IMG/VR virus record: IMGVR_UViG_2534681831_000036
Location: 1-10,626 of that record
Source of the DNA: a virus
Taxonomy: Duplodnaviria > Heunggongvirae > Uroviricota > Caudoviricetes
DNA: 10,626 bases
Reading direction: 5' to 3' (one strand)
Shown here: positions 8,201 to 10,256 of the stretch, piece by piece
How positions within the stretch are numbered: position 1 is the first letter of the stretch
How the letters are laid out: each line of letters opens with the position of its first letter
The notes under the pieces: generated by a model
Database searches by the model: none
Seen by the model: only the letters and a program-made list of their open reading frames with translations
What the model was told of the DNA's origin: nothing
Translations under genes and position numbers: made by a program

Positions 8201-8699
8201 CGAGGCCAGGAACTGTGAGGTGGTCTTGCCGTTAATGGTGACGTCCTTTTCTGTCACCCAGTTACCGTTACGCTGTAACTGAATCAGCAGGCGGACGGAT
8301 GCCGGGTTACGGTCACCCTTTGAGGTGGTCTCCACCAGTGACTGCACCCCGAAGGTAACCCGCAGGCGGTCAATGTTCGCGGACGTAATGGTGCGCGTCA
8401 CCGGTTTTGCCTTCGTCACTTCCACGCCCAGTCCGGTTTCAGCTCCGGAGGACTCAAAGCCTTCCGGTGGTGTCTGCTCCTGCTCCCCGGCGCGCCAGAC
8501 CGCGGTCACACCGTGTATCACGGGGATTGCCGTCCGTGTCCGTCAGTGGGGTTTTGTTCACCAGGATACTCTGCAGCCCCTTCACCGGACCTTCAATCGG
8601 CCCTTCACCAATCGCATCAATCACGCTCATCATCTGCGTGGACTTAAGATTGTCCTTTGCCTCAACCGGCGTGTGCGCCTTGCCACCACCTTTGCCCAT
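5201..8699 (-). pseudogene. J: tail tip / host-specificity protein J (central tail fibre), reading frame broken by a 1-nt frameshift near its 5' end
   Basis: N-terminal piece from ATG 8699 (SD GGGTGAG): MGKGGGKAHTPVEAKDNLKSTQMMSVIDAIGEGPIEGP.., matching the recalled lambda J N-terminus, runs in one frame to ~8523. The 1106-codon remainder (5201..8521) is in another frame and has J-like size and position. Frames meet at the G4 run 8522-8525; removing one base gives continuous ..[23 protein letters not shown]. Confidence 0.85.
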
Positions 8700-8730
8700 T
8701 GTCTCACCCTTTACTGTGATAACTGTTACG

Positions 8731-8763
8731 CACAAAAACAACAGGCATCCCGGAGGATGCCTG
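8731..8763 (-). terminator. intrinsic-terminator-like hairpin immediately upstream of the J RBS
   Basis: Stem CAGGCATCC (8742-8750) / GGATGCCTG (8755-8763), loop CGGA; the minus-strand transcript reads hairpin then UUGUUUUUGUG (plus 8731-8741). Confidence 0.5.
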
Positions 8764-8801
8764 TATCATCACTGAATAAAACTTCTGAATATCTTCACAT
8801 T

Positions 8802-8829
8802 TTTACAAACTGACTGTGGTGCTAATAAT
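8802..8829 (+). promoter_or_regulatory. candidate sigma70-like promoter inside the I-J spacer (speculative)
   Basis: TTTACA (8802-8807), 16-nt spacer, AATAAT (8824-8829), in an AT-rich ORF-free spacer ~75 nt upstream of a plus-strand terminator-like hairpin. Pattern match only. Confidence 0.2.
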
Positions 8830-8902
8830 TTCTCTGCGTTAATGTTTTTTGTCGTGACATAAGAATAATTCCTTACACTTAATCTTCGTAACGCTCCCTC
8901 AG

Positions 8903-8927
8903 TTCCGCAACTCTGCGGGATTTTTTT
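8903..8927 (+). terminator. plus-strand intrinsic-terminator-like hairpin + T7 run inside the I-J spacer
   Basis: Stem CCGCA (8905-8909) / TGCGG (8914-8918), extendable by two pairs, loop ACTC, followed by TTTTTTT (8921-8927). It lies antisense to the tail operon, just downstream of the I stop. Confidence 0.45.
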
Positions 8928-8934
8928 ATTCTTT

Positions 8935-9614
8935 TTACCCCTGCCGCCCGATAACCACGACCTTTCCGCCCCCGCCTTCATCACGGGTGCTGATGTCCTG
9001 GGATATCCGTCGTGAACCAACCAGCATTTCCCCGTAAGGCACCGGCATCGGGTTACCCTGGGCAATCATATTGTCCAGTGACGAAAAATACGTGTTCTGT
9101 TTACCGTTATCCGTTGCGCGGTAATCCGGTGTTTTTGCCTTCGGTGCCAGCATCTGGGCCACACCGCCCAGAATCATACTGGCACCCAGTGAAAACAGCA
9201 TCGTGGTGGCAGAAAACCACCGGCACTCAGGGCTGTACCCCATAACGCCATCGAGCCTCCGACAGTGAAGAAAGAGCCCACGATGGCTGCCGCCCCCAGC
9301 ACAATCTGCAGTCCACCCTTTCCGGCCCCGGCCAGTCGCGGCACAATGTGGATGACCGTTCCCTCACCCAGCTGTTCGTGAAGACGGGCGTACACCGCCT
9401 CCGGTGCCGTGTCCTCACCGGCAATACGTATCTGGTACCACCCTTCGTTCATCTGACGGCGAAAGCCCGGCATCTGCATCGACAGGGCGCGAATGGCTTC
9501 CGCTGCCGTGTTCACGTACAGGCTGAGGCGGCGGCCAAATCGTTGTAAATCCCCGTGAAGGCAGATGCGTGCCAGTGGCGGTGACGCCAGACAGAATGCG
9601 TTCGTCGTTGCCAT
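8935..9614 (-). pseudogene. I: tail tip assembly protein I, reading frame broken by a 1-nt frameshift
   Basis: N-terminal piece from ATG 9614 (MATTNAFCLASPPLARICLHGDLQRFGRRLSLYVNTAAEAIRALSMQ..) to 9174; C-terminal piece in another frame to stop 8935 (..GGVAQMLAPKAKTPDYRATDNGKQNTYFSSLDNMIAQGNPMPVPYGEMLVGSRRISQDISTRDEGGGGKVVVIGRQG). Frames meet at the A4/T4 run 9213-9216; adding one base gives continuous ..GGSMALWGTALSAGGFSATTMLFSLGASMILGGVAQMLAPK.. Total ~226 aa, close to lambda I. Confidence 0.8.
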
Positions 9615-10256
9615 TTTTCAGAATACCTCTCCCGTTTACTCAGTTGTTCAGGCAGATGGTGAAGCAGCTCACCGTTGCCGCAGTATATGGCGGCATGGTT
9701 CGGTACCGAAGCACCAAAGCAGCACAGCAGAATATCGCCCGCCTGTGCAGAGGACAGGGGCACCCGGTAAAAGCCGGTGACCGCCATATTGTCCAGGTAA
9801 AGGTTCTGACCGTTGCGCCACCAGTCATCCCCGCGATGAAAATCCGGCATTTCAGTCCCCGCCAGATGGTATGCATCCCGGAACAGGGTGTAACAGTCCG
9901 TCACCCCGTGCTACAAAGCGCCGTCCCGTCAGGTGCGGCACGCAGCGGAATTTGTGAATTTCCCCCCGGCAGACCAGCCACCAGGGCAGTGCGCTTTTTA
10001 TCTGCAGCCGCCGGTCCGCCTCGCTCAGCCAGGGCAGCCCACCGGGGTGGCTGTGGACCAGTGCCACAATCTCCCCCTGCATCTGTGCCTGCAGCCAGTC
10101 TTCCGGTGCGATACGAAAATACGCCTCCGGCTCTGCGGAGATATTCACGCAGGGCTGGTACCGTTCGCCCTCCGGGGTGCTTATCACGAAGCCGCACGAC
10201 TCCGCAGGCGCACACCGCCGGGCATGCGCCAGAATCGCTGATTCAGTCTGTGTCAT
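9512..10256 (-). pseudogene. K: tail tip assembly protein K (MPN/JAMM + NlpC/P60 domains), reading frame broken by a 1-nt frameshift
   Basis: ATG at 10256, 13 nt after the L stop: MTQTESAILAHARRCAPAESCGF..HSHPGG.. (JAMM-like) to ..HLTGRRF. The second frame (9512..9904) begins 4 residues before the NlpC/P60 catalytic Cys (TDCYTLF.., later NHAAIY and LLHH). Junction lies within 9904-9916, probably the C4 run 9904-9907. Confidence 0.75.

Follow-up and report, generated by a model that had tools for sequence, protein, structure and literature searches.

Frameshifts in the tail genes K, I and J of a prophage in the Escherichia coli DEC8B draft genome are best explained as draft sequence errors

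Has a prophage with frameshifts in three adjacent tail genes lost the ability to build tails, or is its sequence wrong? The question is raised by the 10,626-nucleotide (nt) stretch of DNA analysed here (in the following, the window), which represents positions 1 to 10,626 of the IMG/VR virus record IMGVR_UViG_2534681831_000036 (Caudoviricetes) and contains the lambda-like tail genes K, I and J, each interrupted by a 1-nt insertion or deletion (indel). An earlier note on this DNA, made from the sequence alone, had offered two readings, a tail-defective prophage or homopolymer sequencing errors. Our analysis favours the second, which we broaden to errors at a contig end inside a multi-copy prophage repeat. 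The three frameshifts are very probably sequencing or assembly errors of a draft genome, with K, I and J intact in the strain, and there is no evidence for a tail defect of the prophage.

Each of the three genes is cut into two open reading frames (ORFs) on the minus strand, which the ORF coordinates bear out; proteins are given in amino acids (aa):

9512-10256, minus strand: K, tail tip assembly protein, present as ORFs 9852-10256 (134 aa) and 9512-9904 (130 aa)
8935-9614, minus strand: I, Lambda_tail_I family, present as ORFs 9174-9614 and 8935-9243
5201-8699, minus strand: J, tip attachment or host specificity protein, present as ORFs 8454-8699 (81 aa) and 5201-8521

We aligned the window with five intact relatives (E. 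coli 95NR1, E110019 and 11128, and the phages Stx1_699 and PhiR5_1), in which K measures 744 nt and J about 3.5 kb, while I is annotated with 582 or 681 nt. Across K-I-J, this alignment contains exactly three 1-nt indels that are specific to the window:

9913, minus strand: K lesion, an extra base (A on the plus strand, coding-strand T in TTTG[T]AGCAC) outside any homopolymer, at codon 115 of 247
9213-9216, minus strand: I lesion, T4 on the coding strand (A4 on the plus strand) against T5 in all relatives, at codon 133 of 226
8522-8525, minus strand: J lesion, C4 on the coding strand (G4 on the plus strand) against C3 in all relatives, at codon 59 of 1165

The directions of the indels (K +1, I -1, J +1) and the sites in I (A4, against A5 in the relatives) and J (G4, against G3) agree with those first proposed from the letters alone. 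The same does not hold for K, whose lesion had been placed in the C4 run at 9904-9907. This run of four is kept in every intact homologue, and the true site at 9913 lies 6 nt beyond it. Deletion of a C from the run restores the frame as well, but yields the residues VAR instead of the EHG of the homologues; the extra base at 9913, in turn, generates a TAG in the downstream frame of K. Contrary to the claim made for all three genes, only I and J have their indel in a 4-nt homopolymer, and K is hit by a non-homopolymer insertion. The earlier note had also named run lengths of 3, 5 and 3 in the reads as the test for an error. In the homologues, we found 3 at the J site and 5 at the I site, while the K homologues keep the run of four and lack the extra base 6 nt away.

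Correction of 1 nt per gene rejoins the ORFs, as had been predicted, and rebuilds proteins of 247 aa (K), 226 aa (I) and 1165 aa (J), whose lambda-like identities are supported by Pfam. Repaired K carries Prok-JAB (4e-16) and NLPC_P60 (2e-12) domains, both above the curated cut-offs, and has the features of lambda gpK, namely a JAB/MPN-type N-terminal part, an NlpC/P60 C-terminal part, a length of about 200-250 aa and a locus between L and I. I matches the gpI family PF06805 (1.3e-16, 61 bits against a cut-off of 23.8) and is located between K and J. For lambda gpJ, we looked for FNIII-A_GpJ, Phage-tail_3, Ig_J, Phage_Tail_Tip and Ig_GpJ_C combined in a protein of about 1,130-1,170 aa, and all five are present in the single 1165-aa protein that results from repair of J.

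Where does this sequence come from? The window is the reverse complement of the final 10.6 kb of contig AIGG01000034.1 (GCA_000249815.2), part of the 2012 draft genome of E. coli DEC8B. It stops 1 nt from the end of that contig, which breaks inside gene L. Two truncated products were deposited from the DEC8B draft, EHW13635.1 for the K fragment of 130 aa and EHW13727.1 for the J fragment of 81 aa, both encoded on this contig of 138,228 bp; the latter forms a singleton cluster, found on a single contig in a set of about 15 billion proteins.

Among 5,426 complete E. coli genomes, the top match over the whole window is NZ_CP077473.1 (99.5%), a record of assembly GCF_049570215.1 described as 'O111:H8 strain 8B' from Homo sapiens, USA: Idaho. 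DEC8B is listed as an O111:H8 strain of human origin from Idaho, 1986 (PMC2211750, Table 1), and as an O111:H8 isolate from a human patient with stx1, stx2 and eae (PMC7693793). Another source gives the 1986 Texas outbreak as its origin (PMC8044961), in conflict with PMC2211750; we used the Idaho origin from the strain table of the latter. The draft contig includes a flank of unique chromosomal DNA, from yebV to proQ, which shows 0 differences from 8B in 6,786 aligned nt. From the metadata and this local sequence identity, we infer that strain 8B is DEC8B re-sequenced; a literature search for CP077473 and for 3030A-86 returned no matches. The finished 8B genome has K, I and J as intact, annotated genes. 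The repaired J (1165 of 1165 residues) and the repaired I (226 aa) of the window are identical to the 8B proteins, while repaired K differs from its 8B counterpart in three residues (32, 34 and 99), all of which fall within a patch at the contig end that is described below.

We then asked whether the frameshifted alleles occur anywhere else, as an allele inherited as a pseudogene would recur when the strain or its relatives are assembled independently. The 61-mers centred on each lesion were compared with the same 5,426 complete genomes, where they matched 1,553 (K), 4,689 (I) and 2,075 (J) places. At none of these places was a window 61-mer found at 99% identity or more; the top matches reach 60/61, and the matched records span 60 (K), 62 (I) and 60 nt (J), the lengths of the intact alleles. 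Allele-tolerant pattern scans of IMG/VR gave roughly 400 allele matches, with intact alleles at no fewer than 199 loci for K, at least 139 for I and 57 for J. The window allele was found at none of the J loci and, among the matches listed, at none of those for K and I. An inherited pseudogene is thus represented by 0 of 5,426 genomes and by 0 of the IMG/VR loci listed, and both the singleton state of the J fragment and the intact K, I and J of strain 8B also speak against it.

The end of the contig differs from the remainder of the window:

9960-10626, minus strand: patch at the contig end, comprising the 3' part of L and approximately the first 99 codons of K, a blended consensus

Within this patch, the variant sites flip between the cognate 8B copy and a second prophage copy of the same genome, located at 1.29 Mb, in blocks whose lengths range from a few to tens of bases. 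In 45 of the 46 differences from the cognate copy, the window carries the allele of the 1.29-Mb paralogue, interspersed with alleles found in the cognate copy only, and the best match of the 677-nt patch in any complete genome reaches only 97.9%. Judged from this pattern of alleles, the patch is apparently a consensus formed column by column from reads of several paralogous copies, a chimera that represents no real single-copy sequence. The frameshifts lie 714 (K), 1,411 (I) and 2,102 nt (J) away from the chimeric contig end.

The three indels do not stand alone: the window holds four further private 1-nt indels. Compared with 8B, it shows seven in total (9913, 9213-9216, 8522-8525, 3359, 3334-3339, 3328 and 1206-1211), in addition to 46 substitutions in 9960-10606 and five in the remaining approximately 9.9 kb. 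For comparison, 8B and the Australian outbreak strain 95NR1 differ from each other in one column in 8.1 kb of prophage, while 279 columns of the window differ from both. The features affected outside K-I-J are:

3327-4466, minus strand: tail fibre gene, GG shortened to G at 3359, with altered final residues and an added extension as the result
near 3626, minus strand: tail fibre deletion, 198 nt (66 codons) in frame within collagen-like Gly-X-Y repeats, relative to 8B and 95NR1
3081-3350, minus strand: small downstream tail-fibre gene (89 aa in 8B), A7 reduced to A6 at 3334-3339 and an A inserted at 3328 (TATGC to TATAGC)
1206-1211, no strand assigned: intergenic homopolymer between pphA and the nleC region, 6 bases against 7 in 8B and 95NR1

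The indels at 3359, 3334-3339 and 3328 cluster where the tail fibre gene meets the small tail-fibre gene. Those at 3334-3339 and 3328 compensate each other (-1/+1) within a few bases and leave a TAG at codon 8 of the 89-aa gene; such a compensating pair is typical of consensus or flow-space errors. The 198-nt deletion is flanked by an 11-nt direct repeat (GGGGCAACCGG) and is either a repeat collapsed in the draft or a real variant in repeat length.

The spectrum of these changes is informative. Five of the seven indels fall in homopolymers, the insertions at 9913 and 3328 being the two outside them, and the ratio of seven indels to five substitutions is far from natural divergence. In mutation-accumulation data of E. 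coli, indels make up about 10% of changes, and at this fraction seven or more indels among 12 changes are expected with P = 5e-5. The prophage part, within the final 9.4 kb of the contig, holds all seven, while the 6.8-kb unique flank is free of them; a uniform rate would give this distribution with P = 0.02. The differences therefore bear the marks of an artefact in two respects, as their spectrum is dominated by indels and biased towards homopolymers at a contig end and in a repeat, and as they are private to one draft without counterpart in the finished genome of the apparently identical strain.

How could such errors have arisen? In related strains, the tail module is present in 7-11 copies per genome, and draft contigs typically break at such places. 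The DEC8B contig ends inside this lambdoid module, whose 8-11 near-identical copies per genome would make it hard to assign reads to one particular copy. The platform was probably prone to run-length errors, for which pyrosequencing is known. Sister drafts of Shiga toxin-producing E. coli from the same centre and laboratory were produced in 2012 with 454 Titanium 3-kb paired-end reads and Celera 6.0 (PMC3491183). This points only indirectly to the platform behind the errors, which, like the assembler step, we infer. The outcome would be 1-nt indels, mostly in short homopolymers, which near the contig end would give way to a column-by-column blend of paralogues, while the real prophage would most likely carry intact K, I and J like the finished 8B.

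Several observations weigh against this explanation. The identity of 8B with DEC8B rests on metadata and local sequence identity. The insertion in K is not in a homopolymer. The error-free unique flank indicates that the draft is generally accurate, and its 0 differences rule out a draft of generally low quality as the cause. Below position 9942, the consensus across K-I-J matches the cognate copy at every variant site, so that simple mixing of paralogues offers no obvious explanation for the three indels. Genuinely frameshifted tail genes are, moreover, common in prophages of enterohaemorrhagic E. coli (EHEC), as with the J at 1.29 Mb in 8B and the portal gene in 95NR1, both annotated as frameshifted.

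The last point leads to the first alternative, according to which the lesions are real inactivating mutations of a decaying prophage in the DEC8B stock sequenced in 2011-12, while the stock finished as '8B' lacks them. Frameshifted structural genes are indeed frequent in defective lambdoid prophages of EHEC, of which the prophages of O157 Sakai are examples, and both the insertion in K, atypical for a homopolymer error, and the accuracy of the draft in unique DNA suit this view. In finished 8B, the J of the separate prophage copy at 1.29 Mb (5430 onward in the fetched locus) is annotated as frameshifted, so genuine J pseudogenes exist in this strain, albeit in another copy. If the lesions were real, including those of the tail fibre gene, the nleC prophage would owe a very recent loss of tail assembly to a burst of small indels and could be mobilised only with tails from the other lambdoid prophages of the strain. 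However, this demands that 9.4 kb of prophage acquired seven indels and a 198-nt deletion against 0 changes in 6.8 kb of adjacent chromosome, with an indel-to-substitution ratio of 7:5 that is very unlike natural divergence. It further demands alleles shared with no other genome or phage contig searched, next to a contig end that is demonstrably no real single-copy sequence, and it is opposed by the intact K, I and J of the finished 8B genome. We therefore consider real mutations unlikely.

A second alternative, real recombination or gene conversion between the prophage copies of DEC8B, would make K-L a mosaic and the lesions imports from a paralogue. EHEC prophages do recombine, and alleles of the 1.29-Mb paralogue from the same genome are present at the variant sites in 9960-10606. 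Yet the alternating blocks measure only a few to tens of bases, and the patch matches nothing in the complete genomes at more than 97.9%. The import of the indels from a paralogous copy fails on the same data, since the three indels are found in neither the cognate copy nor the 1.29-Mb paralogue, and the 61-mers occur in no copy of any complete genome, the other copies in 8B included. Such an exchange appears very improbable. Programmed recoding by ribosomal frameshifting or transcriptional slippage, although lambdoid tail operons do contain one programmed -1 frameshift in G/GT, can practically be dismissed, as K, I and J are uninterrupted and in frame at the lesion positions in all homologues examined, a run of four does not suffice for slippage, a slippery sequence is missing from the K site, and three different sites with differing signs would be required.

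Draft errors thus account best for the broken genes, and the frameshifts are almost certainly no biological feature of the prophage. The main value of this result is cautionary. Taken at face value, the frameshifts would mark the nleC prophage of a reference EHEC O111:H8 strain as tail-less, and they have left spurious proteins in the databases, a 130-aa "NlpC/P60 family protein" and an 81-aa "host specificity protein J". As the evidence points to intact K, I and J in the strain, conclusions on inducibility or prophage decay should rest on NZ_CP077473.1 and not on the draft. Pseudogene mining is unsafe at contig ends within multi-copy prophage modules.

The tail genes on the minus strand follow the order L (3' part, 10270-10620), K, I, a spacer of approximately 235 nt, J and lom. 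Past lom lie the tail fibre gene (3327-4466), the small tail-fibre gene and nleC, followed by the chromosomal genes pphA and yebW:

4531-5130, minus strand: lom
1665-2651, minus strand: nleC, intact, 328 aa, Peptidase_M85, type III effector zinc metalloprotease
277-936: pphA, chromosomal, with yebW beyond

nleC is cargo at the prophage end and adjoins the chromosomal pphA. In the near-identical prophage of 95NR1, nleC is disrupted by IS1203.

One element of the tail region lies outside the artefact and deserves attention in its own right, the spacer between I and J:

8700-8934, no strand assigned: I-J spacer, conserved
8802-8829, plus strand: promoter-like site, TTTACA-16-AATAAT in the window and TTCACA-16-TATAAT in most relatives, near the sigma-70 consensus
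8901-8922, plus strand: terminator-like hairpin, invariant CCCGCAG...CTGCGGG followed by a T run
8764-8741, minus strand: terminator-like hairpin on the tail-gene strand just upstream of J, strong (z = -4.4)

Together, they suggest a small transcription unit antisense to the tail operon, with a predicted transcript of approximately 95 nt that folds into two hairpins (z = -2.9), within a spacer element at 8742-8934. The loci fetched from IMG/VR and from genomes hold 119 near-full-length copies of the unit, in 39 sequence variants, and these show no informative covariation. No Rfam family reached its gathering score over the window, a chance-level match being the only one in the I-J spacer. On the basis of these motifs, we regard the unit as a candidate prophage small RNA (sRNA). 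It is possibly one of the prophage sRNAs already published, for example PasB, which is stated in a preprint to sit inside an operon of structural phage genes (bioRxiv 10.64898/2026.05.13.724894). An anti-sRNA of the AgvB type was also considered; those lie downstream of PR'.

How, finally, does the locus compare with known systems? Its gene order L-K-I-J-lom-stf is that of the lambda tail-tip genes in Stx-converting and other lambdoid E. coli prophages, and the region shares 92-94% DNA identity with Stx1a and Stx2c phages and PhiR5_1. The I-J spacer of approximately 235 nt is common to the EHEC-type relatives but differs from lambda, and in contrast to lambda-type K, I and J, each of the genes in the draft is broken by a 1-nt indel. 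With lambda G/GT, the window has in common a frameshift in the tail assembly operon, but its sites lack a conserved slippery sequence. The genuinely defective lambdoid prophages of EHEC, such as the Sp pool of O157 Sakai, likewise combine frameshifted virion genes with a type III effector, here nleC, at the prophage end; their defects, however, are inherited and found in related genomes, while the window alleles occur in none of these, nor in finished 8B. The closest likeness is to the errors of early next-generation drafts, with their homopolymer indels and collapsed repeats. As in those drafts, the indels of the window are private, mostly confined to homopolymers and located in a multi-copy repeat at a contig end beside a blended consensus, while the insertions at 9913 and 3328, which fall outside homopolymers, set it apart from pure run-length errors.

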